64,000 nucleotides of DNA from Alphaproteobacteria bacterium (GTDB lineage: Bacteria > Pseudomonadota > Alphaproteobacteria > Bin95). Positions 5,153 through 50,064 of this stretch are shown here, one piece after another. The DNA is taken from NCBI GenBank assembly GCA_963665325.3, contig CAXXWS020000003.1, forward strand, positions 32,001 to 96,000, written 5' to 3'. The notes below the pieces were generated by a model. That model saw only the letters and a program-made list of their open reading frames with translations, was not told the origin of the DNA and searched no databases. Position numbers and translations under genes: made by a program. Position 1 is the first letter of the stretch; each line of letters opens with the position of its first letter.

Positions 5153-5335
5153 CTAATTCCGCTCTCCGGACATGAGCTTGTCGATCGCTTCTCCTATGCG
5201 CTCGGCCGCAGCTTCGATTTCCCGGTCCCCCACATGGGCGTAGCGCAGCGTCAACTGCACGTTGGAATGCCCGAGCAGCCTGGAGACCACAGGCACGGAC
5301 ACTCCGTTCATCACAGCATGGCTCGCCATGGTATG
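5153..5335 (-). pseudogene. C-terminal 60 codons of the resident tyrosine integrase split by the ICE
   Basis: Manual translation HTMASHAVMNGVSVPVVSRLLGHSNVQLTLRYAHVGDREIEAAAERIGEAIDKLMSGERN*; has LLGH and catalytic Tyr (RYAH); no start codon of its own. Confidence 0.9.
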
Positions 5336-5347
5336 GCAAATATCGTG
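5334..5347. other. Left attachment junction of the ICE (TGGC-aaata-TCGTG)
   Basis: Integrase homology ends here; same TGGC-N5-TCGTG frame as 49103-49116; AT-rich DNA follows. Confidence 0.8.
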
Positions 5348-5548
5348 TATTTAATCTAACCACCGCCCAGCGCCGACCAGTGCCGACTGAACTACGATTA
5401 ATCACGGTATAACAACTATCTATGAGATATTCAGTCCGACCGGAAGGGGTTGCACTGCCGCCCGCCACCGCCTATAACCGGCTCGATTATGACACCGGTC
5501 GGTTCCTATGTGTTTACGATCCGGGACCGAAAAATTCCAGGATCCGGG

Positions 5549-6739
5549 ATGCCCGCACGAAACGCGATCAGGATTTCCAAGCGCTCGGTGGACGCGCTGA
5601 GGGTCGAGCGCGGCGACGCGGTGTTCTGGGACCGCGACCTGACCGGCTTCGGCGTCAGGGTGTATGCGACGGGGCGCAAGGTCTACGTGGTGCAGATGCG
5701 GGGGCTGGCGGGCAGCATGAAACGCGCCACGCTCGGCGCGCACGGCGAGATGGCGCCCGACGAGGCGCGCAAGGACGCGGCGGGCGTGCTCGACCGCATC
5801 CGGCGCGGCGAGGAGCCGTTCCCGCCCGCACCTGAGGCGGAGCCCACCGTCGCGGACCTGGCGGCACGCTACATGAAGGCGCATGTCGAGGTGAACTGCC
5901 AACCGGGAACGGTGGAGACCTTCCGGCGCATTGTGGACCGCTACATCGTGCCCGAGCTCGGCCATCTGGCGCTGTCGGCGGTGGAGCGTTCGCATGTGTC
6001 GGACCTGCACTTCGGGATGCGGGACAAGCCGTCCCAGGCGAACCAGACGGTCGGCGTGCTCTCGAAGATGTTCCGGCTCGCCGAGGCGTGGGGGATGACG
6101 CCGCCCCGGCGCAATCCGTGCCGCTCGGTGCGGCCTTACACGAAGACCCGGCGCGAGCGGTTCCTGACGCCCGAGGAATACCGCACGCTCGGCCGGGTGC
6201 TGGACGAGGCCGAAACGCAGGGCGGGTTTCTTCCCTCGGGGGTGGCGGCGATCCGCCTGCTGCTGCTGACCGGGTGCCGCAAGAACGAGATCGTCACGCT
6301 CCGGTGGGACGACATCGACCGCACGGCGGGCGAGATCCGGCTCCGCTGTACGAAAACCGGGGCGCGGCGCATCCCGCTGACGCCGGCGGTGGAATGGGTG
6401 CTGGCCGGCGTTCCGCGCATCGAGGGCAATCCCTGGGTGATCGCGGGCCAGAAGCCGGGGGACCATCTGAAGAACCTCGACCAGGTCTGGGCGCGCCTGC
6501 GCCGCCGCGCCGGGCTGAAGGACGTGCGGATTCACGACTGCCGACATTCGTATGCCTCGCGGGCGCTGGCGATCGGCGAGGGCCTGCCGACGATCGGCAA
6601 GCTGCTGGGCCACCGCAAGGTGACGACGACCGCGCGCTATGCGCATCTCGCGCGCGACACCGAGAAGGCCTCGGCGGTCAGGGTCGGGGGCAGCATCGGC
6701 GCGGACATTCTCGGCGGCGGGGAAGGCCGGGCGGCGTAG
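5549..6739 (+). CDS. Tyrosine recombinase/integrase 1 with N-terminal arm-binding domain
   Basis: FWDRDLTGFGVRV arm domain; TGCRKNE, TKTG, HDCRH, LLGH and RYAH catalytic motifs all intact. Confidence 0.93.
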   Translation: MPARNAIRISKRSVDALRVERGDAVFWDRDLTGFGVRVYATGRKVYVVQMRGLAGSMKRATLGAHGEMAPDEARKDAAGVLDRIRRGEEPFPPAPEAEPTVADLAARYMKAHVEVNCQPGTVETFRRIVDRYIVPELGHLALSAVERSHVSDLHFGMRDKPSQANQTVGVLSKMFRLAEAWGMTPPRRNPCRSVRPYTKTRRERFLTPEEYRTLGRVLDEAETQGGFLPSGVAAIRLLLLTGCRKNEIVTLRWDDIDRTAGEIRLRCTKTGARRIPLTPAVEWVLAGVPRIEGNPWVIAGQKPGDHLKNLDQVWARLRRRAGLKDVRIHDCRHSYASRALAIGEGLPTIGKLLGHRKVTTTARYAHLARDTEKASAVRVGGSIGADILGGGEGRAA

Positions 6740-6769
6740 CGCCCGGAAGAGACCGGAGACGGAGAGGAC

Positions 6770-7978
6770 ATGGCGCGGCTCGGGACGAAGAAGATTTCGC
6801 GGCGGACGGTCGAGGCGCTGAGGGTGGAGAAGGACACCATCTTCTGGGACAGCGAGCTGGCGGGCTTCGGGGTGCGCGTCCATCCGACGGGGCGGAAGGT
6901 CTACATCGCGCAGACCCGCGCGGGCGGCAGGGCGGCCAAACGGGTGACGGTGGGACGGCACGGCGTCATCACCGCGGAGGAGGCCCGGCGCCGCGCCGCG
7001 CTGATCGTTGCCCGGATCAAGGCGGGCGAGGAGGCGATCCCCGAGCCGATGGCCGCGAAACCGGCCGGGGGGCCGAGCGTGGGAGCGTTGGCCGGGCGCT
7101 GGCTCGAGCAGCATGTGGCGGTGCGCTGCAAGCCGAAGACGCAATCCATGTACCGCCTTGTTGTCGCGAAGTACATCCTGCCGGAACTCGGCAAGCGCCC
7201 GGCGCCGGCGGTAGGCCACAAGGAGGTGACGGAGCTTCATCACTCGCTGAGCGCAACGCCGGTGATGGCGAACCATGTGGTCGATGTCCTGTCGCGGATC
7301 TACAACGCCGCCGAGGACCGTGGAGATATCCCGGAGGCGACCAACCCGTGCCGGCAGGTGGTCAAGAACCGCGAGCGCAGGCGCGAGCGGTTCCTGACCG
7401 ACGAGGAGTTCCGGCGCCTGGGCCGGGTGCTGGACGAGGCGGAGACCCGCAAGGGGGTCTCGGTGCACGCCGTGGCGGCGATCCGGCTGCTGCTGCTGAC
7501 CGGCTGCCGCAAGGGCGAGATCCTGAACCTGCGCTGGGACCAGGTGGATCTGGAGGCGAGCGAGCTCCGCATACCCGAGACGAAAACGGGTCCCCGGACG
7601 ATTTCGCTGTCGCCGGAGGCGGCGGCGGTGCTGTGCGGGACACCCCGGCGGTGTGGCAATCCGTTCGTGATACCGGGGAAGCTCAGGGGCAAGGCGATGC
7701 GCAACCTCAACGACCCCTGGGAGATCGTCTGCAAGCGCGCCGGACTGGAGGACATGCGGCTTCACGACTGCCGGCACAGCTACGCGTCCAGGGCGCTCGC
7801 ACTCGGCGAATCCCTGCCGATGATCGGCCGGCTGCTCGGTCACACGCAGGTGGAGACCACCGCGCGCTATGCGCATCTCGCGGAGGCCTCGGTGAAGGAA
7901 TCGGCGGTGCGGGTGGCGGACAGCATTGCCGGCGATCTTCTGGCGAAGTATCCGGGGACCGGGAGCGTCGCCGGTTGA
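6770..7978 (+). CDS. Tyrosine recombinase/integrase 2, paralog of integrase 1
   Basis: FWDSELAGFGVRV; TGCRKGE, TKTG, HDCRH, LLGH, RYAH; GGAGAGGA RBS. Confidence 0.95.
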   Translation: MARLGTKKISRRTVEALRVEKDTIFWDSELAGFGVRVHPTGRKVYIAQTRAGGRAAKRVTVGRHGVITAEEARRRAALIVARIKAGEEAIPEPMAAKPAGGPSVGALAGRWLEQHVAVRCKPKTQSMYRLVVAKYILPELGKRPAPAVGHKEVTELHHSLSATPVMANHVVDVLSRIYNAAEDRGDIPEATNPCRQVVKNRERRRERFLTDEEFRRLGRVLDEAETRKGVSVHAVAAIRLLLLTGCRKGEILNLRWDQVDLEASELRIPETKTGPRTISLSPEAAAVLCGTPRRCGNPFVIPGKLRGKAMRNLNDPWEIVCKRAGLEDMRLHDCRHSYASRALALGESLPMIGRLLGHTQVETTARYAHLAEASVKESAVRVADSIAGDLLAKYPGTGSVAG

Positions 7979-8204
7979 ATGGCGGGATCGCGAACCGCGG
8001 CAGCCACACGGCCGTCCTTGCCGGTGAGACGGAAGCTGCTCCGTCCATCGCCGCCCGGCATGTTGACTGCCGTAGTCACGTTCGGCATGACGCGCACGGA
8101 CTCCGCGGGCCGCCGGCCCGGCCTGCCGGGTCCGATGTGCCGCCCGGGTATCCGCGGCGCGCCCGGCGCCCCGCGATGGCCACCGCCCGCAAGCGGACGA
8201 CGTG

Positions 8205-8423: not shown

Positions 8424-8465
8424 CGGACGGGCCGGGTCCGGCCCGTCCGCACCGGCGGATCGTCT

Positions 8466-8582: not shown

Positions 8583-8684
8583 CGATAGCGCGGGGCACGG
8601 TACTCTTGTCTTGCCCCACGCTCAGCCCGGTTCATGCAAGACAGCGAGCGAGCATGCGAACCGCGCGCACCGACCGGACCGACG

Positions 8685-9011
8685 TCAATCGCGGGCGTTG
8701 TGTTCAGCGATGCCGGCAAGCTCGACCGGAGGGCGGTCGGGGAAGCGGGCAACCAGTGACAGGCTGCCGCCCATCGCCTCGACGGTCTTGCGCAGCGTGG
8801 ACAGCAGCAGGTCGCTGCGCTGTTCCAGCCGGGAGATGGCGTCCTGGCTGATACCGAGCTCGCGCGCGACGCTCGCCTGGGTGAGCCGACGGGCCTTGCG
8901 CAGCTCGCGCAACGTCATTTCCTCGGCGATCAGCTCAGCCGCCCGCTCCTCGATCCTGCGCCGTCGCTCGGGGTCGAGGCCGGCGATCACGTCTTCCACA
9001 TCCAGCGCCAT
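8685..9011 (-). CDS. XRE/HigA-like HTH antitoxin
   Basis: LRELRKARRLTQASVARELGISQDAISRLEQRSDLLLSTLR; directly downstream of toxin. Confidence 0.88.
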   Translation of the reverse strand: MALDVEDVIAGLDPERRRRIEERAAELIAEEMTLRELRKARRLTQASVARELGISQDAISRLEQRSDLLLSTLRKTVEAMGGSLSLVARFPDRPPVELAGIAEHNARD

Positions 9012-9026
9012 GACGATTCTCCTTCT

Positions 9027-9383
9027 CTATCTGTCGGCGAGCCGGGCAAGGTGCCGGTCGAAGCGTTCGTCGGCCTTGCGGATCAATACGCGGTAGAACC
9101 GCCGCTCGCTGCCGCCCGACTTGTCGCCGGCCACCAGAAGCATGGCGCGGCGGACGGGATCGAACGCGAAGGCGACCCGCCACTCCCCGCCTGCCGCGCT
9201 GAGCCGCATCTCCTTCATGTTCGCGTGCCGCGACCCGTTCAGCGTGTCCACCTGCGGCCGGCCCAGTTGCGGACCGAACTGCCGCAGAAGGCGCGTCATG
9301 GTCAGGATCGTATCCTGAACCTCCAACTGTAGAGCAAAGAACTCGGGCTCGAACTCCTCGGCAATCCGGACCTGCCAACTCAT
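9027..9383 (-). CDS. RelE/ParE-superfamily (HigB-like) type II toxin
   Basis: GPQLGRPQVDTLNGSRHANMKEMR, WRVAFAFDP, LLVAGDKSG motifs. Confidence 0.88.
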   Translation of the reverse strand: MSWQVRIAEEFEPEFFALQLEVQDTILTMTRLLRQFGPQLGRPQVDTLNGSRHANMKEMRLSAAGGEWRVAFAFDPVRRAMLLVAGDKSGGSERRFYRVLIRKADERFDRHLARLADR

Positions 9384-9901: not shown

Positions 9902-9924
9902 CCACCTGCGTCCGCGTGACGGCC

Positions 9925-12900
9925 ATGAGCGTTCCCGCATGGCTATGCCGCTACTGGCGTCCCTCCTCACCGCCTGAATCTTCCTCCTCCGCCGGACTGC
10001 GTTCAGCATCAGGCCGTCCCGCTTCCTCCTCAGACAGCTTCGATTCTTCCGTCACCCGTGCCGCAGCGGGCGTGCGCCATGCCGCGCCCGGCCCGCGCGC
10101 TTTCCTTGCTTCCGCGTTCCCGGGCGCCTCCACTGCGGGCCGCCTCCTCCGCCGTTCCGCGGCGGCGTTCCTGCTCGCCCTGCCGCTTCTGGGCGTGTCG
10201 GCGCCTGCCGTCCTTGCCCAGGGCCCGGTATTATCTATTGCTACAGGCACCACCCCCACACCAGAAGATACTCCGCATGGGATTCTGAATTGCAACATTC
10301 TGGGCGGCGTAAATCCATCGATGAGAATCAATCTGCACGTCACCCAGACCGGCGACTTTCTGAGGCCCGGACAGACCGGCAACAGGGTGTACATTCCAAA
10401 CATCCCTAGGAACACTGGGTTCGTTCCAGTAACGATTGACAACGACAACGTGGACGAGCCCGACGGCACGGTGACCTGCACGCTGCTGCCCGGCACGGGA
10501 TATAGGGTCCATAGCACACGGGATAGGTCTGATAGACCCATCGCTGACGACGATCCGACCATCGTCTCGCTCGCGCGTGTGGGCAGCGGCGCGGTTGACG
10601 AGGGGAGCACGGCGGAGTTCACGGTGACGCTGGGCCGCGCGCTGGTTGCGGGCGAGATCGTGGACGTTCCGCTGGCGGTCGGCGGCACGGCCTCCACGGC
10701 CGACCGGAGCCTGGCGCTGAAGTCCGGCGGGTCCCTCAACACGGGCGTGACGCTTACGGGCCAGGCGACGGCGACCCCGAAGCTGCGCTTCTCGGGCGCG
10801 GCCGCGCAGACGGCGACGCTGGTGCTGACCGCTAGGTACGACTCCTGGAAAGACCACGGCGAGACCGTCACGGTGGCGCTGGGCCCGGACGGCACGGGGT
10901 CGAACGGGTTCGACCACTCCAGCGGCGGCACCAACGTGGGCGGCGGCGCGGACCCGCACGGCACGAACAACGAGTTCACCGTCACCATCAACAACACCAT
11001 CGCCACCACCAGCGCGGGCCACTTCTGGTTCGATTCGTGGCCCGCAGATGGAGCCGGAAATGTCGCACTCGGCTCCTCATCTACCATTTACGAAGGGGAC
11101 AGCATCACCTACACGGTCAAGAGGAGTCAGGAAGCTGGCGCGGCCACGGTGGACTATGCGACCGCCGACATCTCGGCCAAAGCGCCCGGCGACTACACCC
11201 ATGTCTCGGGCACCCTGCACTTCGCACGTGGTGATCGTTTCAAGAGTTTCACCGTCCGGACCGTTTGCGACAACGTGGGGCATGAACTCCCCGAGCAGTT
11301 CTGGCTGATCCTGTCGAACCCGACCGGCGGGTATAGCCTTACCAGTACAAACAGAACCTACCCGCACAAAAGCAGGGTGATGATAAAGCCGGTGCGTAAC
11401 TGTACGGGGGGGCAGCGCAAGCTGACGGTCCCGGAGGTGACGATCTCGGCGGACCGGGCCTCGGTGACGGAGGGCGGCGACGTGACGTTCACGGCGACGG
11501 CGAGCCCTGCGCCGCAGCAGGCCCTGACGGTGAACGTCGGTCACTTCGAGGAAATGGGGGACGGCCTGGAATACCGGGGCCAGGGGGGAACGGACACGGT
11601 GACGATCGCGGTGGGCCAGACGACGGCGAGCTGGACGGTGACGACGATGTCGGACGAGGACGACCTGGCCGACGGCACGGTGGTGGGCAACATTGCAGCG
11701 GGCGACAACTACACGGTAGGCGATCCGTCGGAGGTGACGGTTGCGCTGCTCGACGACGACGGGGCGGTGCCGCAGGACGTGCCGGATTCGGTCGTGGGCG
11801 ACCCCGCGACCCCGGCCATCGACCCGGCGCTGGTCGCCGAGGTCAGGGCCCGCGCGGCGGAGACGCGGCACGGCGCGGCGCATGTGAACCGCTGGCGGCG
11901 GGTGCTGATGGCGTTCGGTGTGGAGACCTATGCGGGTCTCGCGCCGACGACGGCGGCGGAGGCCAAGGCGAACGCGAAGCGGTACAGCAGCCCGCTGTGG
12001 CCCCGGATCGCGACCGTGCTGACGGCGCTGGAGGCGGCGGCCGCACTGGCGGAGCAGCAGGAACAACAACCCGCGACCGTGCCCGGGATCACGGTCTCGG
12101 CCGGCAACGCGGTGACCGAGGGCGAGGACGCGACTTTCACGGTCACGGCGAGCCCGGCGCCTGCCTCGCCCCTGTCGGTGAGCGTGACGGTGGCGGCCGA
12201 GGGCGACTTCGGACTGACCGTGGGCGAGCGGCCCGTCACCATCCCGACGACGGGCAGCGTCACGCTGACGCTGACGACGGAGAACGACGACGCCGACGAG
12301 CCCGACGGCTCGGCGAGCGTGACGGTGAATGCGGGCGAGGGCTACACGGTGGGCGATCCCGCGTCCGGCACCGTATCCATAGCGGACGACGACGCGCCGC
12401 TGCCCGGGATCACGGTCTCGGCCGGGGATGCGGTCACCGAAGGCGGCGACGCGACCTTCACGGTCACGGCGAGCCCGGCGCCTACATCGCCCCTGTCGGT
12501 GAGCGTGACGGTGGCGGCCGAGGGCGACTTCGGACTGACCACGGGCACGCGGACCGTCAGCATCCCGACCGCGGGCAGCTTCATGCTGACGCTGGCGACG
12601 ACCGGCGACGATGCGGACGAGCCGGACGGCTCGGCGAGCGTGACGGTGAACGCGGGCGACGGCTACACGGTGGGCGACCCCGCGTCGGGGACGGTCGCGG
12701 TGCGCGACGACGACCTGCCGCCGCCGGCGGTGTCGATCGCGGCGACGGCGGCCTCGGTGACGGAGGGCGGCGCGGCCGCCTTCACGCTGACCGCCGACCG
12801 CGCGCCCGACGCCGACCTGACGGTGACGCTTTCGGTCGCGGAGACCGGGGACGGCGACCATGTGGCGGCGGCGGACGAGGGTCCGGCCACGGCGACGATC

Positions 12901-15069
12901 GCGAAGGGAGCAACGGAGGCGTTGTTCTCCGTCGCCACGGTGGATGACGACGTGGACGAGCCGGACGGTTCGGTCACGGTGACGCTGAAGGACGGCGGGG
13001 GCTACACGGTCCCGTCGCCGCCGGGCAATGCGGCCACGGTGACGGTCTCCGACGACGACGCGGCGGTCGGCCCGGCGCTCTCGGTCGACGATGCGACGGG
13101 CAAGGAGAACGGCCGCCTTCCGGTGATGCCGTTCACGGTGCGGCTGTCGGCGCCCTCGCAGGCGCCGGTGCGGGTGCATGTCTCGACGCGGCCCTCGACG
13201 CCGGTGTCGGCGACCCCGAGGGTCGACTATGCGCCGGGCAGCTACAACCTGCTGTTCCGCGCGGGCGAGACCGAGAAGCAGGTATGGATCTGGATCTACA
13301 ACGACAGCCATGACGAGGAGCCGGAGACGTTCGAGGTGGTGCTGTCGGCGGCGCAAGGCGCGCCGGTGGGCGACGGTGTAGCGGTTGGGACGATCGTGAA
13401 CGACGACCCGATGCCGGCGGCGTGGCTGGCGCGGTTCGGGCGCACGGTGGCGGAGCAGGCGCTGGACGGGATCGCGGGCCGCATGTCGGCGGACCGCACG
13501 CCCGGTATGCAGGGCTCGATCGCCGGGCAGGCGCTCTCGTTCGATCCGGCCGCCAACGACAACCCCGGATCGCGGGGAGCCGGCCCCGGCCTCCGAGCCG
13601 GGGGGGCAGGCGCGGCTGCGGGCAATGTTGCGGCCGGGTCCTCGACACTCGGAGGGACTGGGTCTCCGGCGCTAGCCGACGTCGCGCAGGCGTTCGGCGG
13701 CCAGTCCGGCCACTCCGGCCCGGGCGGCTTCGGTCATGACGCGGCGGGCTTCGGTCCCGGCCTGCAAGCCGGGGAGGCAAGCGCGGCAGGCTTCTCGCAA
13801 TCGCAAACCATGACGGCGCGCGACGCGCTGCTGGGATCGAGCTTCTCGCTGACCGGCGCGGCGGACGGCTCGGGCGGCAGCATGGCGTTCTGGGGCCGTG
13901 CGGCTCAGGGCGGCTTCGACGGCCGGGAGGGGACGTTCTCGCTCGACGGCACGGTCACCACCGGCATGTTGGGCGCGGACTATGCCCGCGGCAAGTGGCT
14001 GGTGGGGCTGGCGCTTGCGCAAAGCGAGGGCGAGGGCGATTACCGCGACAGCGATGTCAGCCCCCGTCCCGACGGCCAGACCTGTCCCGCGATTGACGGA
14101 CAGGAGATGCCGGAGTGGTGCAACGGGGCCGTGCGCGCGGGCGACGGCAGTGTGGAGGCGTCGCTGACGGCGGCGATCCCCTATGCGGCGTTGCAGGCTT
14201 CGGAGCGTCTGAAGCTCTGGGGCGCGGCGGGCTACGGCACGGGCGAAGTGACGCTCAAGACCGCGCTCGGCGGCAGCTACAAGGCGGACACCACCTGGAG
14301 CATGGCGGCGGCGGGGCTCAGGGGCGACCTGCTGGCGCCCCCCGCTGAGGGCAGCGGTCCCGCCCTGGCGGTGACCTCGGACGCCCTGTGGACGCGGAGC
14401 TCGTCTGAGAAGACGGACCAGCTCGCGGCGTCGGACTCCGACGCGACCCGGCTGCGGCTCGGCCTGGAGGGCAGCTACCGCATGGCCTTTGAAGGCGGCG
14501 GTCATGTCACGCCGAAGCTGGAGATCGGCGCGCGCCATGACGGCGGCGACGCGGAGACCGGCTTCGGAGTCGAGCTCGGCGGCGGCATCGCGTGGACCGA
14601 CCCGGCGCTGGGGCTCTCGCTCGACGTGTCGGGCCGCACGCTGATCGCGCACGGCAACGACGACCTGAAGGACCGGGGCTATGCGGCCGCGCTTGCCTTC
14701 GATCCGGACCCGGCGACGCGGCGGGGGCCGTCGCTGAGCCTGCGCCAGGAGTTCGGCGGGCAGGCGCAGGGCGGGCTCGACGCGCTGTTCCAGCCGGCGA
14801 CGCTGGAGGACCGCACGGGCGGCGAGGCCACATCCCGCTGGGCGATGGAGGCGGCATACGGCTTCCCGGCCTTCGGCGGGCGCTGGACCGGCAGCCCGCA
14901 TGTCGGATTGGGGCTGGCGGCGGCTGCGCGCGACTACAGCGTCGGCTGGCGGCTCGCGCCGGAGACCAACGCGCCCGACCTCTCCTTCGGGGTGAAGGCG
15001 AGTCGTCGGGAGACCGATACGGACGCGCCGGAGCATACGGTCGGGTTCGAGGTCCGCGCCCGCTGGTGA
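9925..15069 (+). CDS. Large Calx-beta/Ig-repeat surface protein with C-terminal autotransporter-like beta-barrel
   Basis: Extended signal peptide ending AVLA; repeated VTEG...FTVT...DDxDEPDG...DDD modules; linker AWLARFGRT; amphipathic beta-strand C-terminus ending in W; start could be 9916. Confidence 0.85.
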   Translation: MSVPAWLCRYWRPSSPPESSSSAGLRSASGRPASSSDSFDSSVTRAAAGVRHAAPGPRAFLASAFPGASTAGRLLRRSAAAFLLALPLLGVSAPAVLAQGPVLSIATGTTPTPEDTPHGILNCNILGGVNPSMRINLHVTQTGDFLRPGQTGNRVYIPNIPRNTGFVPVTIDNDNVDEPDGTVTCTLLPGTGYRVHSTRDRSDRPIADDDPTIVSLARVGSGAVDEGSTAEFTVTLGRALVAGEIVDVPLAVGGTASTADRSLALKSGGSLNTGVTLTGQATATPKLRFSGAAAQTATLVLTARYDSWKDHGETVTVALGPDGTGSNGFDHSSGGTNVGGGADPHGTNNEFTVTINNTIATTSAGHFWFDSWPADGAGNVALGSSSTIYEGDSITYTVKRSQEAGAATVDYATADISAKAPGDYTHVSGTLHFARGDRFKSFTVRTVCDNVGHELPEQFWLILSNPTGGYSLTSTNRTYPHKSRVMIKPVRNCTGGQRKLTVPEVTISADRASVTEGGDVTFTATASPAPQQALTVNVGHFEEMGDGLEYRGQGGTDTVTIAVGQTTASWTVTTMSDEDDLADGTVVGNIAAGDNYTVGDPSEVTVALLDDDGAVPQDVPDSVVGDPATPAIDPALVAEVRARAAETRHGAAHVNRWRRVLMAFGVETYAGLAPTTAAEAKANAKRYSSPLWPRIATVLTALEAAAALAEQQEQQPATVPGITVSAGNAVTEGEDATFTVTASPAPASPLSVSVTVAAEGDFGLTVGERPVTIPTTGSVTLTLTTENDDADEPDGSASVTVNAGEGYTVGDPASGTVSIADDDAPLPGITVSAGDAVTEGGDATFTVTASPAPTSPLSVSVTVAAEGDFGLTTGTRTVSIPTAGSFMLTLATTGDDADEPDGSASVTVNAGDGYTVGDPASGTVAVRDDDLPPPAVSIAATAASVTEGGAAAFTLTADRAPDADLTVTLSVAETGDGDHVAAADEGPATATIAKGATEALFSVATVDDDVDEPDGSVTVTLKDGGGYTVPSPPGNAATVTVSDDDAAVGPALSVDDATGKENGRLPVMPFTVRLSAPSQAPVRVHVSTRPSTPVSATPRVDYAPGSYNLLFRAGETEKQVWIWIYNDSHDEEPETFEVVLSAAQGAPVGDGVAVGTIVNDDPMPAAWLARFGRTVAEQALDGIAGRMSADRTPGMQGSIAGQALSFDPAANDNPGSRGAGPGLRAGGAGAAAGNVAAGSSTLGGTGSPALADVAQAFGGQSGHSGPGGFGHDAAGFGPGLQAGEASAAGFSQSQTMTARDALLGSSFSLTGAADGSGGSMAFWGRAAQGGFDGREGTFSLDGTVTTGMLGADYARGKWLVGLALAQSEGEGDYRDSDVSPRPDGQTCPAIDGQEMPEWCNGAVRAGDGSVEASLTAAIPYAALQASERLKLWGAAGYGTGEVTLKTALGGSYKADTTWSMAAAGLRGDLLAPPAEGSGPALAVTSDALWTRSSSEKTDQLAASDSDATRLRLGLEGSYRMAFEGGGHVTPKLEIGARHDGGDAETGFGVELGGGIAWTDPALGLSLDVSGRTLIAHGNDDLKDRGYAAALAFDPDPATRRGPSLSLRQEFGGQAQGGLDALFQPATLEDRTGGEATSRWAMEAAYGFPAFGGRWTGSPHVGLGLAAAARDYSVGWRLAPETNAPDLSFGVKASRRETDTDAPEHTVGFEVRARW
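12080..12721 (+). repeat. Tandem 321-bp (107-aa) duplication within the autotransporter
   Basis: PGITVSAG...DPASGTV...DDD unit begins at 12080 and 12401 with near-identical DNA. Confidence 0.9.
13564..13605. repeat. 42-bp palindromic repeat within coding sequence, copy 1
   Basis: CCCGGATCGCGGGGAGCCGGCCCCGGCCTCCGAGCCGGGGGG; about 40/42 identical to 23547-23588. Confidence 0.75.
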
Positions 15070-15089
15070 GCGCGGCGCGCGCGTTGACC

Positions 15090-16779: not shown

Positions 16780-17090
16780 GGGGCGCGGGAGATGCCGGCG
16801 CCGCGCGCCTTGCCGCCGTCATGGCGCTCGCCGCGGCGGCGGTGCTGGCCGGACCGGATATCGTGCTGGCGAGCACCGACACGACCTTCGGCGATCCGCT
16901 GGATACGGTCGAGGGGATCGTCGGCGGCACCGGCGGGCAGCTCGCGGCGGCGCTCGCCGTCGGCGCGGCCCTGGTCGGCTCGGTGCTGCGCTTCAACGCG
17001 ATGCAGCTGATGGGCGCGGTCGGGGTCGGCATAGCGGCCGGCGCCGGCACCGGCATCGTGACCGGCCTGGTCGGCACGGCGATCGTGTGA
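16776..17090 (+). CDS. traA: Conjugative pilin precursor
   Basis: ~104 aa with signal peptide and two hydrophobic helices; directly before traL. Confidence 0.7.
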   Translation: MRGAGDAGAARLAAVMALAAAAVLAGPDIVLASTDTTFGDPLDTVEGIVGGTGGQLAAALAVGAALVGSVLRFNAMQLMGAVGVGIAAGAGTGIVTGLVGTAIV

Positions 17091-17383
17091 TGAACGACAC
17101 CGCGCGCCACACCATCCCGCGCCGTCTCGACGACCCGGAGCGCTGGCTGTTCTGGACCGTCGACGAGGCGGCGGCGCTGATGGGCCCGGCGCTCCTCGGG
17201 CTTGCCGCCAACCAGTTCGTGCCGGGGCTGGTGGCCGGCGTCGGCGGCTGGCTGCTGCTCAGGCGCGTGAAGCGCGGCGGCGGGGCCAACATCGCGCGCT
17301 ACGCGCTCTACTGGTTCCTGCCGGACTTCGTGCTGCGCCTTGAACGCACGCCGCCGAGCCATCTGCGGCGCTTCGCCGGGTGA
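17090..17383 (+). CDS. traL: F-type T4SS protein TraL
   Basis: IPRRLDDP..LFWTVDE and LYWFLP...TPPS motifs. Confidence 0.9.
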   Translation: MNDTARHTIPRRLDDPERWLFWTVDEAAALMGPALLGLAANQFVPGLVAGVGGWLLLRRVKRGGGANIARYALYWFLPDFVLRLERTPPSHLRRFAG

Positions 17384-17405
17384 GGCGCGGAGCGGGAACG
17401 GGGCG

Positions 17406-17978
17406 ATGAACCGCGCCTTCATGGAGACCGGCATCCGGCGCGCCCGCGATATCAGGGTGGCGCTGGCCGGGCTGCTGGCGCTGTCGATGACCGCCAACCT
17501 GGCGCTGACCGTGGGCTTCGTCGGGCGCGAGACGGCGACCGTGCTGGTGCCGGCGGCGGCGGGGCCTTCCTGGGCGGTGGGCGGCGGCGGCGCCGGCGAG
17601 GGCCGCGCCGGCGCGCGCTATCTGGAGGACATGGCGCGCACGGTGGCGGTGACGCTGCTGACGCTGACGCCGGAGAACGCGGCCCATGTCCGCCTTGCGG
17701 CGGCGCGCCTGGCGCACCCGTCCGCGCGCGGCGCCATCGGCGCCTGGGTCGAGGCCGAGGCGGCGCGCATGGCCGGGCGCGACCTCGCGAGCGCGTTCTA
17801 TCCCGACAGTATCGAGGCCGACCCGGCGCGGCTCGGCGTCGAGGTCGCGGGCGAGCTGGTGACCTGGATCGGGCGCGAGGAGGCCTCGCGCGAGGACCGG
17901 CGCTACCGGCTCGCGTTCCGCATCGACGCCGGGCGCATCGGCCTTGTGCGCTTCGAACAGATGGAGACCGGAAAATGA
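17406..17978 (+). CDS. traE: F-type T4SS protein TraE
   Basis: N-terminal TM, TVLVP, YLEDMA...LLTLTPEN, SAFYP; L-E-K-B gene order. Confidence 0.88.
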   Translation: MNRAFMETGIRRARDIRVALAGLLALSMTANLALTVGFVGRETATVLVPAAAGPSWAVGGGGAGEGRAGARYLEDMARTVAVTLLTLTPENAAHVRLAAARLAHPSARGAIGAWVEAEAARMAGRDLASAFYPDSIEADPARLGVEVAGELVTWIGREEASREDRRYRLAFRIDAGRIGLVRFEQMETGK

Positions 17979-20073: not shown

Positions 20074-20074
20074 C

Positions 20075-26984: not shown

Positions 26985-27025
26985 ACCCGATGAAACGCAA
27001 TGACAGACACGACCCTGAAAAGACC

Positions 27026-31191: not shown

Positions 31192-31216
31192 CCCGTGAAC
31201 GGGTGACACCTTAACT

Positions 31217-36743: not shown

Positions 36744-36744
36744 C

Positions 36745-39735
36745 ATGCTGTCGATCGGCGCGCTCGCCTCGGCGTCGCAGGGCGCGTCCTATTACGAACG
36801 CGACGGCTACTACTCGAAGGACGATCCGGAGCACCGCGCCGCCAGCGCCTGGGCGGGCAAGGGGGCCGAAGCGCTCGGCCTGAAGGGGCCGGTCGATCCC
36901 GACACCTTCCGCGCCGTGCTCGAGGGCCGGGTGCCCGACGGTTCCGGACGGCAGCTCGGCCGGCGCGGGAGGGACGGGGAGATCCTCCACCGTCCCGGCC
37001 GCGACCTGACCTTCAGCGCCCCCAAGTCCGTCTCCCTCGCGGCGCTGGCCGGCGGCGACGAACGCATCGTGGACGCGCATGACCGCGCCGTCGCGGCCAC
37101 CCTCGCCTGGGTCGAGGGGAACGCCGCCGAGACCCGCATGAAGGATGCCGACACGGGCAAGATGGCGCGGGTCGGCAACCAGAAGATCGTCGCCGCCCGC
37201 TTCAGGCACGATACGTCCCGCAACCTCGATCCCCAGCTCCACACCCATGCCGTCCTCGCCAACATGGTGCAGGCGGAAGACGGCAAGTGGCGCAGCATGG
37301 CCAACGAGCGGCTCTACGGATCGAAGATGCTGCTCGGCGCGCTCTACCGCGGCGAGCTGGCCGCCTCGCTGGCGCGGCTCGGCTACGGGGTAGAGAAGAC
37401 CCATGCCGACGGGCGCTTCGAGATCGCGGGCGTGCCGCGCGGGGTCGTCGAGGCCTTCTCGACGCGGCGCGCCGAGATCGAGGCGGCGATGAGCGAACGC
37501 GGGCTCGGCGGCTCCGCCGGCAATCCGCGCCTTGCCGAGCGTGCCGCGCTGATGACCCGGGCGGGCAAGCGCGACATCGACCGCGGGGAGCTGCGGGACG
37601 TGTGGGCGAAACAGGCCGCGGATCTCGGCTTCGACGCGCAGGCGCTGGTGGCCGGCGCCCTCGCCCGCTCCGCCTCGGCGCAGCGCGAGGCCCCGGAGGC
37701 GGGCAGGGAGCGGGACCCGGCGGGTCCGGCGCCGGGCGAGGCCCGCACGGCGCCGGCGGCAGACACAGCGCAGCGCGAGGCGGCGGCGCAAGGGCCGTGT
37801 GCGGCGTCGCGGGCCGTCGCCTGGGCGCTGGCGCATCTCTCGGAGCGCGAGGCGGTGTTCGCGCGCACCGACCTGCTCGCCGCCGCGCTCGCCCATGCGC
37901 CCGGCAAGTCGACGATCGGCGAGGTCGAGCGCGAGGTGGCCGCCCTGGAGAAGGCCGGCGCGCTGCACGCCGTCGACATCCCCGGCGCGGAGGAGTCGCT
38001 GGCGACCGCGAAGACCGTCGCCGAGGAGCGCGAGACGATCGCGTCGATGCGGGCGGGCGCGGGCCGGGGACAGGCCGCGATGCGGAGCTGGATGGTCCAG
38101 GGGCACCTCAACAAGGGACCGCTCACGGCCGGCCAGAAGGAGGCCGTGAAGCTGATCCTGTCGGCGAAGGACCGCACGGTCGGCGTCCAGGGCTATGCCG
38201 GCACCGGCAAGACCACGATGCTGAACCGCGCGCGGGTGCTGGCGGCGAAGAAGGGATACCGCATGGCGGGCCTCGCGCCCTCGGCCTCGGCGGTGCGGAC
38301 GCTCGCCGCGGAAGCCGGCATCGAGTCCGAGACCCTGCAGCGCTTCCTCGCCCGCAACGCGGGCGTCGCCGAGGGCCGTCTCACGAGGAAGGGCGCGAGG
38401 GAGATGCGCGCCGCGTTCGCGAAGACGATCCTGGTGGTCGACGAGGGCTCGCTTGCCTCCACCGTGCAGGCCCGCGACCTCTTGAGGATCGCCAACGCGC
38501 TGCGCATCCCCCGCGTGGTGCTGGTCGGCGACGCGAAGCAGCTCGACGCCGTCGATGCCGGCAAGCCCTTCGCCCAGCTCCAGGCCGCCGGTATGCGGAC
38601 CGCGGTGATGGACGAGATCATGCGCCAGCGCGATCCCGACCTGAAGGAAGCCGTCGAGGCGAGCCTGAAAGGCGATGTCGAGAAGGCGTTCGAGAAGCTC
38701 GGAAGCAATGTCGCCGAGGTGAAGCCCGACAATATCGCGGGCGCGGTGGCCGCGCGGTGGCTCAGGCTCTCGCCGGAGCAACGCGAGAATACCGGCGTCA
38801 TGGCGCCGTCGCACGAGCTCAGGCAGGCGGTCAATGGGCATATCCGGGAGCGCCTCGCCCGCGAGGGGCGCATCCGCGGGCCCTCGATGCAGGGCGAACG
38901 CCTGGTGTCGAAGGGCTACACCGGTGCCGAGAAAGCGCTCGCGGACAATTACAGTCCCGGAGACATGGTCGCGTTCCACCGCCCCTACAGGCGGATCGGC
39001 GTCGAAAAGGGTGACGAGCGGCGCGTCGCGGGGGTCGACCGCAAGGCCCGCGCGGTGCTGCTCGACGACGGCAGGGGCGGGACGGCCGCCTGGAAACCCG
39101 GAGAGATCGGCGGGCGCCGGGGCGGCAGCGAGGTCTACCGCGTCGAGGAAATCGAGCTCCGGGCGGGCGACCGCATCCGCTGGACCCGCAACGATGCCGG
39201 CCTCGGGCTGGTCAACAGCCGCACCGCCGAGGTGGTCGCGATGAAGGACGGCCGGGTGACCTTCCGCCTGGAGGACGGGAAGACGCTGGAACTCGGGTCG
39301 AACGATCCGCAGCTGCGCCATCTCGACCATGCCTGGGCGTCGACCGTGCACGCCTTCCAGGGGCGCACGGTCGACAATGTCATCGCCGCCATGGAGGCAA
39401 GGCACAAGCATCTGACGACGCAGAAGAGCTTCTATGTCGAGATATCCCGCGCCCGCGACCGGGCCGAGCTGGTCACCGACGACGCGGCCGAACTCAGGGC
39501 GCAGCTCCAGGCGGTCACCGGCGAGCGCATCGCGGCGCTCGAAGGGATCGGCGAGGCGGCGCGCGAGGCGAAGGAAAGGGCCGCCGGGGCCGCGCCGGCG
39601 GGCCGGATGCAGCCGGATCGGGGAGCCGGACCGGATGCCGGGAAGACACCGGACGGGCCGGCCTCGCCCTCGAAGGAGAGGGAGACGCCCGCGCCGTCGC
39701 GCGGCCGGGGCGCCGAGAGGGACCTCGGACTGTAG
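36745..39735 (+). CDS. traI: MOBF relaxase-helicase (TraI/TrwC)
   Basis: SYY...GYY, DLTFSAPKSVS, HDTSRNLDPQLHTH, QGYAGTGKT, VDEGS, TVHAFQG. Confidence 0.96.
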   Translation: MLSIGALASASQGASYYERDGYYSKDDPEHRAASAWAGKGAEALGLKGPVDPDTFRAVLEGRVPDGSGRQLGRRGRDGEILHRPGRDLTFSAPKSVSLAALAGGDERIVDAHDRAVAATLAWVEGNAAETRMKDADTGKMARVGNQKIVAARFRHDTSRNLDPQLHTHAVLANMVQAEDGKWRSMANERLYGSKMLLGALYRGELAASLARLGYGVEKTHADGRFEIAGVPRGVVEAFSTRRAEIEAAMSERGLGGSAGNPRLAERAALMTRAGKRDIDRGELRDVWAKQAADLGFDAQALVAGALARSASAQREAPEAGRERDPAGPAPGEARTAPAADTAQREAAAQGPCAASRAVAWALAHLSEREAVFARTDLLAAALAHAPGKSTIGEVEREVAALEKAGALHAVDIPGAEESLATAKTVAEERETIASMRAGAGRGQAAMRSWMVQGHLNKGPLTAGQKEAVKLILSAKDRTVGVQGYAGTGKTTMLNRARVLAAKKGYRMAGLAPSASAVRTLAAEAGIESETLQRFLARNAGVAEGRLTRKGAREMRAAFAKTILVVDEGSLASTVQARDLLRIANALRIPRVVLVGDAKQLDAVDAGKPFAQLQAAGMRTAVMDEIMRQRDPDLKEAVEASLKGDVEKAFEKLGSNVAEVKPDNIAGAVAARWLRLSPEQRENTGVMAPSHELRQAVNGHIRERLAREGRIRGPSMQGERLVSKGYTGAEKALADNYSPGDMVAFHRPYRRIGVEKGDERRVAGVDRKARAVLLDDGRGGTAAWKPGEIGGRRGGSEVYRVEEIELRAGDRIRWTRNDAGLGLVNSRTAEVVAMKDGRVTFRLEDGKTLELGSNDPQLRHLDHAWASTVHAFQGRTVDNVIAAMEARHKHLTTQKSFYVEISRARDRAELVTDDAAELRAQLQAVTGERIAALEGIGEAAREAKERAAGAAPAGRMQPDRGAGPDAGKTPDGPASPSKERETPAPSRGRGAERDLGL

Positions 39736-45517: not shown

Positions 45518-45550
45518 TTGCCGGCTTATAGCGGATGCGCTATAAGCCGG
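45518..45550 (+). promoter_or_regulatory. TA promoter with overlapping palindromic operator
   Basis: TTGCCG-N17-TATAAG overlapped by perfect CCGGCTTATAGCG-gatg-CGCTATAAGCCGG; ATG 6 nt after the -10 box (leaderless). Confidence 0.75.
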
Positions 45551-45552
45551 AC

Positions 45553-45876
45553 ATGGGATGGACGGTCGAAACCGTTGCGTCCGTCGACGCCGAGATCGCG
45601 GCCCTGCCGGTGGCGTTGCGCGCCCGGCTGGTCCGGCTGCTGGAGACGGTGGAGAGCGTCGGTCTCGATGCGCTTCGTGCGCCGCATGTCCGACATCTTG
45701 ACGGCAAGCTCTGGGAGCTGCGGGTCAGGGCCGAGGGAGGGATTGCCAGGGGGATCTACATGACGGCGGCCGGGCGGCGGGTGGTGGTGGTGCACGTCTT
45801 CGCGAAGAAGTCGCGCAAGACGCCACGCCGGGCGCTCGCGACCGCCAGGGAACGGATGAGGCAGATGACGCCATGA
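45553..45876 (+). CDS. RelE/ParE-superfamily (Gp49/HigB-like) toxin
   Basis: PHVRHLDGKLWELRV, VVHVFAKKSRKTP. Confidence 0.9.
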   Translation: MGWTVETVASVDAEIAALPVALRARLVRLLETVESVGLDALRAPHVRHLDGKLWELRVRAEGGIARGIYMTAAGRRVVVVHVFAKKSRKTPRRALATARERMRQMTP

Positions 45877-46157
45877 CGAAGCTGAAGGAACTGAAGGCGC
45901 GCTTCATGGAGGACCCGGAGTTCCGGGAGGAATATGCGCGCATCGACGGGGAATATGCGCTGATCGAGGCGCTGGTCCGCGCCCGCACGACGGCGAAGCT
46001 GACGCAGGCGGAGCTTGCCGGGCGACTCGGCACGACGCAGTCGGCCGTTGCGCGGCTGGAGGGCGGGCGGGTGTCGCCGTCCTTCGCCACCCTGCGCCGC
46101 TACGCCGAAGCGACCGGCACGCGGTTGACCGTGGATCTGGTGCCGGCCGGTGGCTGA
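45873..46157 (+). CDS. XRE HTH antitoxin
   Basis: LTQAELAGRLGTTQSAVARLEGG..SPSFATLRRYA; ATGA overlap with toxin. Confidence 0.9.
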   Translation: MTKLKELKARFMEDPEFREEYARIDGEYALIEALVRARTTAKLTQAELAGRLGTTQSAVARLEGGRVSPSFATLRRYAEATGTRLTVDLVPAGG

Positions 46158-47674: not shown

Positions 47675-48274
47675 ATGGCTCGCCCCAGGGGCGAATCGAT
47701 ACGCGAGCTGGAGGGTGTGCTGCATGAAGCCGCCGGTCGTCTCAGTCCAGCGCATGTGGCGGCGCTGGTCGCCCATCCCGACGCCGTGCGCTCGGCACTG
47801 GCGGTGGCGGCGGACGTGCTGTCGACGGACGATGCGGGACGGCCCGGGGCCGAAACCATCGCGGGCGCAGAGCCGGTTCGCGTCGGCGCCGAAGAGGCGG
47901 AAAGGCGAATGGCGGCACGTACGCGCGAGGGCGCCGCCGAAGCGCTGCTGAACTCGGACGAACTGGCGGCGCGGGTCGGGCTCAAGACGCGTCAATCGGT
48001 CCATGACTGGCTGAAAAAGGGCCGGATCGTCGGCTGGCAAGGCGCCAGGCGCGGCCATGTTTTCCCGGAGGGGCAGATCGACGAGCGTGGCCGGCCGCTC
48101 GAAGGGCTCGACCGCGTGGTCGGAATGTTCGGCGACGGCTATGCCGCCTGGGTATGGCTGACGACGCCGCGGCCCTCGCTCGACGGAGCGACCCCGTTGA
48201 CGCTGCTGGCCGAGGGCGAGATCGACCGCGTCGCGAAGGCCGCGCAGGGAGACCGGCAGGGCGATTTTGCGTGA
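47675..48274 (+). CDS. Xre/MbcA/ParS-like antitoxin
   Basis: Central HTH (ELAARVGLKTRQSVHDW) and C-terminal WLTTPRPSLDGATPLTLL; precedes RES gene. Confidence 0.8.
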   Translation: MARPRGESIRELEGVLHEAAGRLSPAHVAALVAHPDAVRSALAVAADVLSTDDAGRPGAETIAGAEPVRVGAEEAERRMAARTREGAAEALLNSDELAARVGLKTRQSVHDWLKKGRIVGWQGARRGHVFPEGQIDERGRPLEGLDRVVGMFGDGYAAWVWLTTPRPSLDGATPLTLLAEGEIDRVAKAAQGDRQGDFA

Positions 48275-48873
48275 CCGCCGGTTACGACCCGGAGCGTCTG
48301 CGTGCGCGGCTGCGCGAGGTCCGTCTCGGGCGTGTCTTCCGCGTCATTCATCGCGACCACCGGTCGACCCCCCTGGGGGCGGTGGCGGCGCCGAGCCGGT
48401 TCAGCGATCCACAGGGCGGCTACGCCGTGCTGTACGCCTCGGAGGCCGTGCGCTGTGCGTTCTGGGAAGCCCTCGGACGCAACCGCTTCACACGCCGCAG
48501 GCGGCGCGAGCTTCCACGGATCGAGGTCGAGGCCCGGCTGGTGGCGTCGATCGGCTCCACCGGACCGCTTGCCCTGATCGACCTGCGCGGCGACGGATCG
48601 GTGCGCATCGGAGCGCCGAGCGCGGTGGCGCACGACGGCAACCATGCGGCGGGCCGCGCCCTGTCGGCGGCCGCCTATGCGGACGTTGCGGAGGCGGACG
48701 GGTTCCTGTTCCCGTCGCGGTTCACCGGCGACACCTGCATGGCCGTGTTCGACCGGGCCTTCGATAAGCTGAAGGTGCTCGACATCGCCGAGCTTGTCCG
48801 TCATGTCGAATTCCTGGACGCCCTCGACGACTACGGTATCGTGCTCGCGGAACCGCCGGAGTTGCGGGGATGA
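48271..48873 (+). CDS. RES-domain toxin (NAD+-targeting family)
   Basis: SRFSDP, VLYAS....AFWEAL, LIDL, DGFLFPSR give the R-E-S residues. Confidence 0.85.
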   Translation: MTAGYDPERLRARLREVRLGRVFRVIHRDHRSTPLGAVAAPSRFSDPQGGYAVLYASEAVRCAFWEALGRNRFTRRRRRELPRIEVEARLVASIGSTGPLALIDLRGDGSVRIGAPSAVAHDGNHAAGRALSAAAYADVAEADGFLFPSRFTGDTCMAVFDRAFDKLKVLDIAELVRHVEFLDALDDYGIVLAEPPELRG

Positions 48874-49102
48874 AGGGACGGAAACTGCCGGCGCCGGGAT
48901 CGCGCGCGAATCGGAAATGGCGGATTGTGTCGGCATCGGTCGGGGCATGTCCCGTCAGGATTACCTTCCAGTCCGGTGACTATACGATTACGGGCTGAAA
49001 TTCGGTCTGTGACATGAGTCCGACATGAGTGAAATATTCGTGATAAACCAATATATTATTAACATATTATTAGATATTAGATTAGTATGAGTTGCACAAC
49101 TG

Positions 49103-49116
49103 TGGCGCAGGTCGTG
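49103..49116. other. Right attachment junction of the ICE (TGGC-gcagg-TCGTG)
   Basis: Integrase homology ends after HDLRH; strongly AT-rich element end at 49030-49095. Confidence 0.8.
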
Positions 49117-50064
49117 AAGGCGCACGTCCTCGATGCCGGCCTCGCGCCTGACGCGATACCAGAGCGGGACGTTGTCTCCGCGCGGGTGGGATTCTTGCCG
49201 GGACGAGGGAAAGACGAACGGGCTGCTTGTGCGCGGCTGTCGGTCGAGAATATGTCGGGCCTGGCTGTTGAGAGGAACCGTCCTCGGCCCTGTCTTGCTG
49301 TCGGGCAGGAACAGGTGGCCGTCTCGATAGTCGAGCCACCGGAGGGTGAGGATTTCGCTCTTGCGGCACCCGGTGAGCAGAAGCAGGCGAACGATGGCGA
49401 CTTGCTGCGGCCATCGGGCTTCGTGCGCGGCGAGCCTTTCGGAGAGGCGGCGGATTTCCGCTTCGGAGAGGAAGCGTTCGCGGCCCTTGCGGCGATAGCG
49501 CCTGATGCCCCGGCAGGGATTGGAGCCTTCCGGGCGCAGGCCCATCCGTTCCGCCTCCCTCATGATTACGGACAAAACCGGCATGGACCTGTCCGCGGCG
49601 ACCGGTGTTGCGCGCAGGCGGGCGAACCAGTGCCGTACCTCCTGCCGGTCGATGTCGGCGATCGGATGCCCGGCAAAGTGTGGCAGGAGCTGCTTGCGAA
49701 GATAGCTTCGGTTCACATAGAGCGTCCCTGCCTTCCAGACCCGTTCGTAACGCCGGAATACCGTCTCGGCGACCGCCTCGAAGAGGGTTTCACCCGGCGC
49801 GCAAGGCGCTCCTTCGTCGCGCCGGATCGCGGCGCGCATCTCGCCTGCAATGGATCGCGCCTCGCCCACGCTAACGGCTCCGGCATCGCCGATGATCTTC
49901 CAGACGCGCTCGCCACGGTGCTGGCATTGGATGAAGAACCGCTTGCGGCCCGAGGGCGACACGCGGACGCCGAAGCCCCTGAGCTTGGCATCTCGGACAC
50001 AGCGAACCGTCTTGTGGGGCTTGAGCGCCCTGACGCGGGCGTCGGTGAGGATGGTTCTGGGCAT
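49105..50064 (-). pseudogene. Resident tyrosine integrase, N-terminal 320 codons, disrupted by the ICE
   Basis: MPRTILTDARV...GFGVRV, TGCRKSE, DSKTG, EDVRLHDLR, then AT-rich non-homologous tail; missing LGH/Tyr segment found at 5153-5335. Confidence 0.92.

Follow-up and report, generated by a model that had tools for sequence, protein, structure and literature searches.

An integrative and conjugative element inserted at the HxxR catalytic-motif codons of another element's tyrosine integrase gene, and the recurrence of this site among related elements

We analysed a window of 64,000 nucleotides from an alphaproteobacterium of the lineage Bin95 (assembly GCA_963665325.3, contig CAXXWS020000003.1, positions 32,001 to 96,000), in which a large insert, W, separates the two halves of a tyrosine integrase gene (the labels W, X, K-type, Int1/Int2, IntA/IntB and Hdiv were coined in this analysis). 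The open reading frame (ORF) at 48988-50130 on the minus strand encodes a P4-like tyrosine integrase that is intact up to the residues EDVRLHDLRH and then runs on to 48988 through 37 unrelated, AT-rich codons derived from the insert, followed by a stop. On the same strand a frame at 5335-5153, which has no start codon, reads H-TMASHAVMNG and contains LLGH and RYAH ahead of its stop. The 321 codons from the methionine at 50064 to 49102 and the 59 codons of 5332-5156 amount to 380 amino acids (aa). The N-half matched PF13356 (41.1 bits) and positions 2-139 of the 172 in PF00589 (54.4 bits), while the 60-aa C-half matched positions 134-170 of 172, the last 37 profile positions covered, with 27.3 bits against a cut-off of 27.1; this complementary coverage identifies them as complementary pieces. 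As read from the translations, the catalytic residues are divided accordingly, with R, K and HDLRH in the N-half and LLGH and RYAH in the C-half. When each half was aligned to P0007, an intact homolog of 377 aa, the N-half matched residues 1-321 without gaps (75 % identity) and the C-half residues 322-375 (76 % identity). The two halves are one gene and abut exactly without loss or gain, as judged from these two separate alignments rather than from a joined protein.

The insert W (5338-49106; 43,769 bp counting one copy of the overlap described below) holds genes for mating-pair formation of the F type, a coupling protein, a relaxase and integrases within one bounded stretch. Its tandem recombinases Int1 and Int2 scored 71.1 and 77.6 bits with PF00589 and 38.9 and 35.7 bits with PF13356, and TGCRK, KTG, HDCRH, LLGH and RYAH can be read from both translations. 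By its gene content W is an integrated F-type integrative and conjugative element (ICE) with a TrwC-type relaxase, its mobility being suggested indirectly by a 97 %-identical copy at another site in another genome (locus L031). That copy also marks the boundary of W independently, as its homology begins exactly at window position 5336 while its flank differs. No tRNA gene was found in the 64-kb window.

On the gene strand, the N-side junction of W consists of His-Asp-Leu-Arg-His codons followed by AGTTGTGCA. On the C-side, element DNA that mimics His-Asp-x-x-His codons (pseudo-peptide IHDICH) leads into the Thr-Met-Ala codons of the interrupted gene. Comparison of the junctions of four elements with both ends available (W and those of genomes G044, G041 and G043) delimited a common 7-nucleotide (nt) segment, GCCAYWS, which covers the Arg-His-Ser/Thr codons; its two copies carry 0-2 mismatches, and those in the window differ at 2 of 7 positions. 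Directly after this overlap the right arm starts with TTGTGC in every compared element, and all five N-sides, including that of element X described below, show HDLRH, then S/T-C-A, then TTGTGC. The attachment site of the element (attP) mimics about 9 integrase codons, and the arms flanking the overlap imitate the codons of HxxRH-S-x-A. The sequence TACGATTA occurs only twice in the window, once per ICE arm and in the same orientation, where 0.12 copies are expected and 2 of 100 shuffles reach two copies; TACGATTA-like repeats are candidate arm-type sites for the PF13356 domains. Repeats of the CGTAATC type, similar to TACGATTA, were seen by eye near the ends of other elements.

The original prediction for this locus had pointed to the loss of homology after EDVRLHDLRH and to the start-less frame at 5335-5153, both confirmed by translations and Pfam. 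It had joined the pieces into a single 380-aa integrase, with which the codon counts and the abutting P0007 alignments agree, and had done so at a shared GCCA, which proves to be the first four bases of the 7-nt overlap. The full ICE that it placed between the halves was found, with tandem integrases, a Tra/Trb set, a coupling protein and a TrwC relaxase.

Recurrence of this arrangement was examined with a hidden Markov model (HMM) profile built from 29 integrases of the window's own genome, in which KTG occupies positions 278-280 and HDLRH positions 337-341. Two sets of loci were scanned: 30 loci from a search for relatives in 41 genomes, own genome included, and the best 80 of 219 relatives obtained when five aligned int1 proteins were used as query against the genomes of 185,579 species (the wide scan). 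An integrase C-fragment on the opposite strand, starting at HMM positions 314-340, lay 164-317 bp upstream of the int1 homolog in 18 loci, of which 14 were among the best 80 wide-scan loci and 4, the window's own included, came from the relatives search. Among the relatives, these 4 belong to the five int1 genes of at least 67 % identity (again counting the window's own), their C-fragments start at HMM 327-336 at distances of 164-263 bp, and one of these loci comes from a different family within the class. With three sequence duplicates set aside, the 18 loci reduce to 15 distinct ones, each with a C-fragment of its own; these C-fragments are pairwise less than 90 % identical, except for one pair at 90 %. 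Judged by eye from the first residues, 10 of these targets are int1/int2-like (S-F/Y-A-S-R-A-L...), 2 are IntA-like and 3 IntB-like, IntA and IntB being the first and second genes, respectively, of tandem integrase pairs in the own genome. Closely related int1 genes lie beside C-fragments of different subfamilies (IntA-type at L002, IntB-type at L034). A quick maximum-likelihood tree built from 66 distinct int1 sequences placed every one of the 13 rows with the trait in a single 31-row clade (SH-aLRT 99), and all 13 encode full-length int1 and int2, having been selected as full-length pairs. The far junction was recovered in three of five complete genomes, as an N-fragment with its end at the corresponding residue and with the expected strand and side, at distances of about 33, 62 and 69 kb; two of these split genes are the second members of other tandem pairs. 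The data thus show the anatomy of the split, its exact junctions and the repeated use of one codon position, in 15 distinct loci and three target subfamilies.

The genes entered are themselves carried by conjugative elements in a number of cases. At least four loci have ICE genes beyond the C-fragment, so that one ICE is nested in another and its attachment site lies in a gene of another conjugative element; the genes downstream include TraE/K/C (L041), homologs of SLOG and o43762 (L038) and Calx-type genes (L036 and L044). Within the own genome, an IntA-type integrase on contig C4 (950370-951755) breaks at the same codon (junction at C4 950468) and continues with an element end, ACTTGTGCA, that resembles the one in W. 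This element, X, shares an inner 72-nt stretch at 79 % identity with the right attP arm of W, followed by W-like relaxase-side genes. It seems to be divided between C4 934875-950468 and C2 3068-25282, its relaxase-side half being 97.7 % identical to W. Only its N-side junction was found, the matching secretion-side half standing at the start of contig C2; either recombination has divided X or the contigs are misassembled at this point.

Table 1 Coordinates of the split integrase gene, the junctions and the genes of W in the 64-kb window
Feature	Position	Strand	Remarks
Target integrase N-half, 321 codons	49102..50064	-	Arm-binding domain, box I Arg, KTG Lys, HDLRH
Target integrase C-half, 59 codons + stop	5153..5332 (codons 5332-5156)	-	LLGH His, RYAH Tyr
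Left 7-nt overlap (putative crossover) copy	5331..5337	.	Gene strand: Arg-His-Thr codons
Right 7-nt overlap copy	49100..49106	.	
Left (int-proximal) attP arm	5338..5449	.	First 10 nt mimic His-Asp-x-x codons; TACGATTA at 5393-5400
Right attP arm	48950..49099	.	AT-rich; gene strand begins TTGTGCA, conserved in five elements; TACGATTA at 48983-48990
int1, P4-like tyrosine recombinase	5450..6739	+	Arm-binding and catalytic domains; R, K, HDCRH, LLGH, RYAH present
int2, second tandem tyrosine recombinase	6770..7978	+	52 % identical to Int1; all catalytic motifs present
Gp49 (HigB-like) and helix-turn-helix (HTH) pair, putative toxin-antitoxin module	8685..9383	-	Pfam
1717-aa Calx-beta/LapA-domain surface protein, cargo	9916..15069	+	Pfam
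F-type type IV secretion genes TraL, TraE, TraK, TraC, TrbI, S26 peptidase, TraU, TrbC, TraN, TraH, TraG	17087..34135	+	
Type IV coupling protein (TrwB/TraD type)	34650..36743	+	
TrwC-type relaxase-helicase, mechanical ORF	36457..39735	+	TrwC domain from residue 106
Second Gp49/HTH pair	45535..46157	+	
Xre-type antitoxin and RES-domain toxin pair, right end of W	47675..48873	+	

Three toxin-antitoxin-like pairs thus lie within W, and the true start of the relaxase is probably further downstream than that of the mechanical ORF because its TrwC domain begins only at residue 106.

Within the own genome the two halves of the interrupted gene resemble different paralogs. The N-half is 68-77 % identical to IntA proteins and 41-46 % to IntB proteins, whereas the C-half is 72-81 % identical to IntB C-termini and about 42 % to IntA C-termini. 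In a sliding comparison the likeness of the N-half to IntA held as far as about residue 285 and gave way to IntB at the DSKTG motif, which places the switch at the KTG motif, about 60 codons upstream of the ICE junction and not at it; both sides of the junction are therefore IntB-like. P0007, which was found by a database search with the N-half, is intact and has the same layout, and in a second natural hybrid, P0006 (377 aa), the crossover is close to box I. The two halves point to different classes of paralog because, on these comparisons, the target gene belongs to a natural lineage of hybrids with an IntA N-terminus and an IntB C-terminus, of which P0007 is an intact member; with both P0006 and P0007 hybrid, recombination between tandem paralogs seems common, and in its ordinary form it explains both proteins as their alignments read. 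Another protein, P0012 (332 aa), is of IntA type and ends a few residues past HDLRH; it is possibly another entered gene. Of the island to which the interrupted gene belonged only a remnant is left in the window, with housekeeping-type genes to the right of the split integrase and insertion sequence (IS) fragments to the left of the C-half. A 54-nt stretch upstream of the split integrase (50140-50193) recurs at 79-97 % identity upstream of IntA-type genes in many positions of the own genome and of congeners, and is probably part of the end of the entered element or of its integrase leader.

As a rule, ICEs and genomic islands integrate into tRNA genes or into single housekeeping genes. We consider the best explanation of the present data to be that this ICE family uses the HxxR-codon DNA of integrase genes as its target attachment site (attB), and give this reading as a whole a probability of roughly 0.86. 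W would have entered the integrase coding sequence of another element by site-specific tyrosine recombination at an attB made of DNA encoding H-x-x-R-H-(S/T)-x-A of P4-like tyrosine recombinases. Strand exchange would take place within the 7-nt overlap GCCAYWS, in the Arg, His and Ser/Thr codons, with mismatches tolerated, and attP carries degenerate versions of these codons to the left and right of the overlap, with a left arm that resembles I-H-D-I-C-H and a right arm that always begins with TTGTGC and resembles S/T-C-A. With an attB made of the codons of a family motif, any resident integrase gene with HDLRH-type codons is a potential site. Int1 and Int2 probably act jointly on unlike half-sites, as XerC and XerD do, and the TACGATTA-like repeats of both arms would assist or assemble the complex. 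Insertion would cut off the second catalytic His and the Tyr nucleophile of the target, so that the resident element would lose its integrase, and precise excision would restore the reading frame. The benefit to the ICE may lie in a safe harbour, in disabling rivals or in both; it is plausible that the choice of site spares core genes and that a competitor is held immobile until the ICE excises.

A number of observations weigh against an attB of this kind or narrow its scope. The copy at L031, on a contig titled Rhodospirillaceae bacterium Spongia_Bin9, covers the left 3.85 kb of W and is flanked by a gene whose translation is short-chain dehydrogenase-like; it shows recent mobility of a W-type element together with an off-target site. 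Of the 31 rows in the clade, 16 lack an integrase C-fragment in the 700 bp upstream of int1 and a further 2 stand at contig ends; other flanks read by eye are an ABC-type permease (L053) and the start of an SRAP/YedK-like gene (L047). One Silicimonas element stands in two different genes (L048 and L049), and at L033 the C-fragment is 3.8 kb away. No N-side partner was present among the matches listed for two of the five complete genomes (G042 and G045). Because loci were collected through int1 relatives, their frequencies are not population estimates, and nearly all comparison genomes are metagenome-assembled. A read search returned 10 rows that match part of window 4900-5800, all of them short Logan contigs and 4 containing at least half of its words; runs with small word shares are uninformative on habitat. 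Among the short contigs of four runs mapped to 2000-10000, one (X5, 4871-5363) has only 28 letters on the ICE side and another (X9) starts at 5334, and no countable bridge over 5336 and no joint of a circle or an empty site was found. Orthologs of the neighbouring oxidoreductase gene are present in 15 of 16 congeners, and in the 11 congener loci examined no integrase lies within 1.5 kb of it, which leaves no orthologous empty site. Sequence comparison is the basis for the roles given to Int1 and Int2, for the arm sites and for the length of the overlap.

With L031 and other clade members in unrelated genes, integrase genes are a preferred and not an exclusive target, and their HxxR codons are a strongly preferred, non-exclusive site. 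The original prediction had proposed HxxR as the attB of the family, which the flanks of homologs support through the 15 distinct loci with a C-fragment at the same codon. It had also named two findings that would speak against it. The first, that the halves match different integrase subfamilies, holds within the own genome and is accounted for by the hybrid lineage with its intact member P0007. The second, that relatives insert in unrelated loci as after a one-off event, holds for part of the clade, the dehydrogenase copy included, while the recurrence excludes a one-off.

Alternative origins of the split gene were weighed against site-specific entry. The repeat-rich genome, with at least seven related ICE copies, an element X apparently divided between contigs C4 and C2 and no countable read-level bridge across the junction, could have led to a mis-joining of integrase or ICE repeats; we nevertheless regard an assembly artefact as very unlikely, as the same junction architecture recurs with different flanks in many independent assemblies, complete chromosomes among them, and the L031 contig loses homology at exactly the same base. 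That W arrived at the HxxR codons by a single accident, or by RecA-type recombination between short similar stretches, would fit a shared segment that is short and differs at 2 of 7 positions in the window, but is hardly credible given 15 distinct loci at the same codon in different target genes and the conserved ends of the elements (TTGTGC and the His-Asp-like left arm); moreover, 7 nt are far below the length needed for homologous recombination. The gene could instead be the element's own integrase with an internal attP, and a split integrase flanking an integrated element is described as the hallmark of the archaeal SSV-type 'suicidal' system (PMC8371274). The topology is the opposite and is that of an entered gene, whose 5′ half runs into the ICE and whose 3′ half lies beyond it; the halves do not travel with the ICE, the near-identical copy at L031 being without them; related int1 genes stand beside C-fragments of different subfamilies (L002 and L034); and W carries two intact integrases of its own. 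Membership of the SSV type, with attP in the element's own gene, was accordingly rejected, and we give this origin next to no weight.

A different alternative accepts the attachment site but gives it no role in conflict. On this account attP derives from a piece of an integrase gene, the degenerate attB is commonest in integrase genes, and these serve as a harmless and abundant landing pad, with no action against competitors and off-targets used freely. It is consistent with an attP that mimics about 9 integrase codons, with the 16 of 31 clade rows that lack a nearby C-fragment and the unrelated genes seen by eye in flanks, and with the decayed look of the entered island in the window, of which IS fragments remain left of the C-half. 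Against this account, the victims in at least four loci are related ICEs, two further clades hit other catalytic motifs, which is hard to derive from one accidental attP ancestry, and the contrast in the HDLRH codons described below would fit selection against self-targeting. We hold such a neutral by-product to be a possible but somewhat doubtful explanation.

The use of integrase codons as a site is not confined to HxxR. In a sister clade, K-type, two integrases of the own genome break right after KTG (C1 617941-619035, int2-like; C3 1064449-1065348, IntA-like), each followed by the same int pair on the same strand. The matching C-fragments are 42.5 and 52.5 kb distant, and the intervening DNA carries W-like ICE genes, so that two elements in two different target genes are delimited (C1 575407-617941 and C3 1011991-1064449 of the own genome, G000). 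Three more K-type N-junctions were found in other genomes (L013, L055 and L097), and all five read AAGACAGG and then T-rich DNA. When non-own loci were pooled, 19 of 24 C-fragments started at HMM 314-341, 4 at 355-356 and 1 at 148, and 3 of 10 N-fragments ended at 280-282. In three of the four C-fragments starting at 355-356 (L059 14437, L092 19043 and L107 15287) an element end, ..TTCAACA(C/G)C, precedes and the fragment begins just before the P-M-I-G-K-L-L-G-H codons, which may represent a third hot spot ahead of LLGH. At L068 and L092, which belong to another clade, the C-fragment follows int2 after 26-32 bp on the same strand. A reading of the IntA/IntB switch in the interrupted gene of the window as the scar of a K-type element, with whose junctions it shares two bases, was dropped as unsupported because the intact P0007 has the same layout and P0006 is also a hybrid.

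The elements' own integrases differ from their targets at the HxxR motif. Across the 13 rows with the trait, int1 carries HDCRH in 9, HDARH in 3 and HDGRH in 1, and int2 carries HDCRH in 11, HDLRH in one and one odd match; thus 24 of 26 own genes have a codon other than Leu, whereas all five N-side targets have HDLRH. The exchange of the Leu codon alters the left core arm at the DNA level, and as a lead we suggest that the non-Leu motif could protect the element from targeting its own int genes. A wider picture can be offered tentatively, at a little under even odds in our estimate: a guild of ICEs in several phyla, mostly known from metagenome-assembled genomes, would use tyrosine-recombinase genes as a universal dock, the attP sites of its clades mimicking KTG, HxxRH and possibly the codons before LLGH. 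Such elements could enter nearly every resident integrase gene, those of relatives included, and would knock out the mobility of rivals, while their own genes, recoded to HDCRH in place of HDLRH, escape, and the DNA recognised would encode the active site of their own family.

The 5.58-Mb genome G000 contains well over ten tandem P4-like integrase pairs and at least seven related F-type ICE copies. Some IntA/IntB pairs lie near relaxases about 42 % identical to that of W, and the elements bearing them are perhaps a second family that serves as victim. In 11 of about 14 tandem pairs (for example C1 1508133-1510490) both stop-to-stop frames share one reading frame with a single stop between them, and at most a few codons separate the start of the second gene from the stop of the first, an arrangement that suggests translational coupling. 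An orphan integrase C-fragment on C4 (1027161-1027646, plus strand) starts from HDLRH with unrelated sequence before it and adjoins an arm-domain fragment and an IntB/IntA pair, forming a small graveyard of integrase pieces; elsewhere, L092 has four integrase fragments in 7 kb. On C2, a row of three tyrosine-recombinase frames that overlap one another occurs twice in inverted orientation (130537-133762 and 138575-141800), a layout that we take to resemble the elements called 'recombinase in trio'.

Orphan integrase fragments are common in annotations and are usually put down to decay. If the proposed attB is correct, it would explain how a site is available in any genome or replicon with mobile DNA while core genes are spared, and would offer a simple route to such fragments and to nested, piled-up islands. 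It would also be a direct molecular conflict between mobile elements, in which the Tyr nucleophile of a rival is removed. Nature would further have supplied a pair of recombinases whose asymmetric core is readable from many attL/attR pairs, and the target rules of the system and its possible one-codon self-immunity are testable. Beyond the original observation, the analysis adds the hybrid target lineage, the 7-nt overlap, the mimicry by attP and ICE-in-ICE nesting, together with a second and perhaps a third target motif.

Searches of the full-text literature, which leave supplements and subscription journals outside, returned no description of integrase catalytic-motif codons as attB, and an earlier description is possible; two passages on 'interrupted integrase genes', concerning a transposon and an erm(B) element, state no site rule. 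The nesting of one ICE in a gene of another is already documented, whereas an integrase-codon attB is undescribed in the literature searched. Transposons of the Tn5053/Tn402 group, the 'res-site hunters', sense the resolvase-bound res site of other mobile elements; W shares with them the homing to the recombination machinery of other elements and differs in directing a tyrosine recombinase to the coding DNA of a rival recombinase. The dusA-specific tyrosine integrases likewise target conserved protein-coding sequence instead of a tRNA gene (PMC4482086), though as described there in one housekeeping gene, where the W-type target is a motif common to a family of mobile-element genes. ICEPmu1 and ICEMh1 carry tandem XerCD-like recombinases that target tRNA-Leu (PMC6861422). 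Like them W has two adjacent paralogous tyrosine recombinases, and its conserved tandem pair and unlike left and right core arms would fit one protein per half-site; unlike the recombinases described for those ICEs, Int1 and Int2 are P4-like with arm-binding domains and do not share the tRNA-Leu target. In the archaeal SSV-type integrases, exclusively archaeal according to the review concerned, attP lies inside the element's own int gene (PMC8371274); the likeness to W is an integrase gene in two pieces around an element with the recombination site in its coding sequence, and the difference is that W enters the gene of another element, keeps both its own integrases intact and shows the reverse topology. 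Closest in outcome, Tn1806-like ICEs are described as integrating into snf2 of ICESa2603-family ICEs (PMC12942858), so that there, too, the attB of a conjugative element lies in a conserved gene belonging to other mobile elements, and nested composites arise. In contrast to that case as described, the W-type target is an integrase gene at its catalytic-motif codons, in at least three integrase subfamilies and with a predicted loss of the victim's recombinase, attP imitates the target codons, and the recombinase is a tandem pair.

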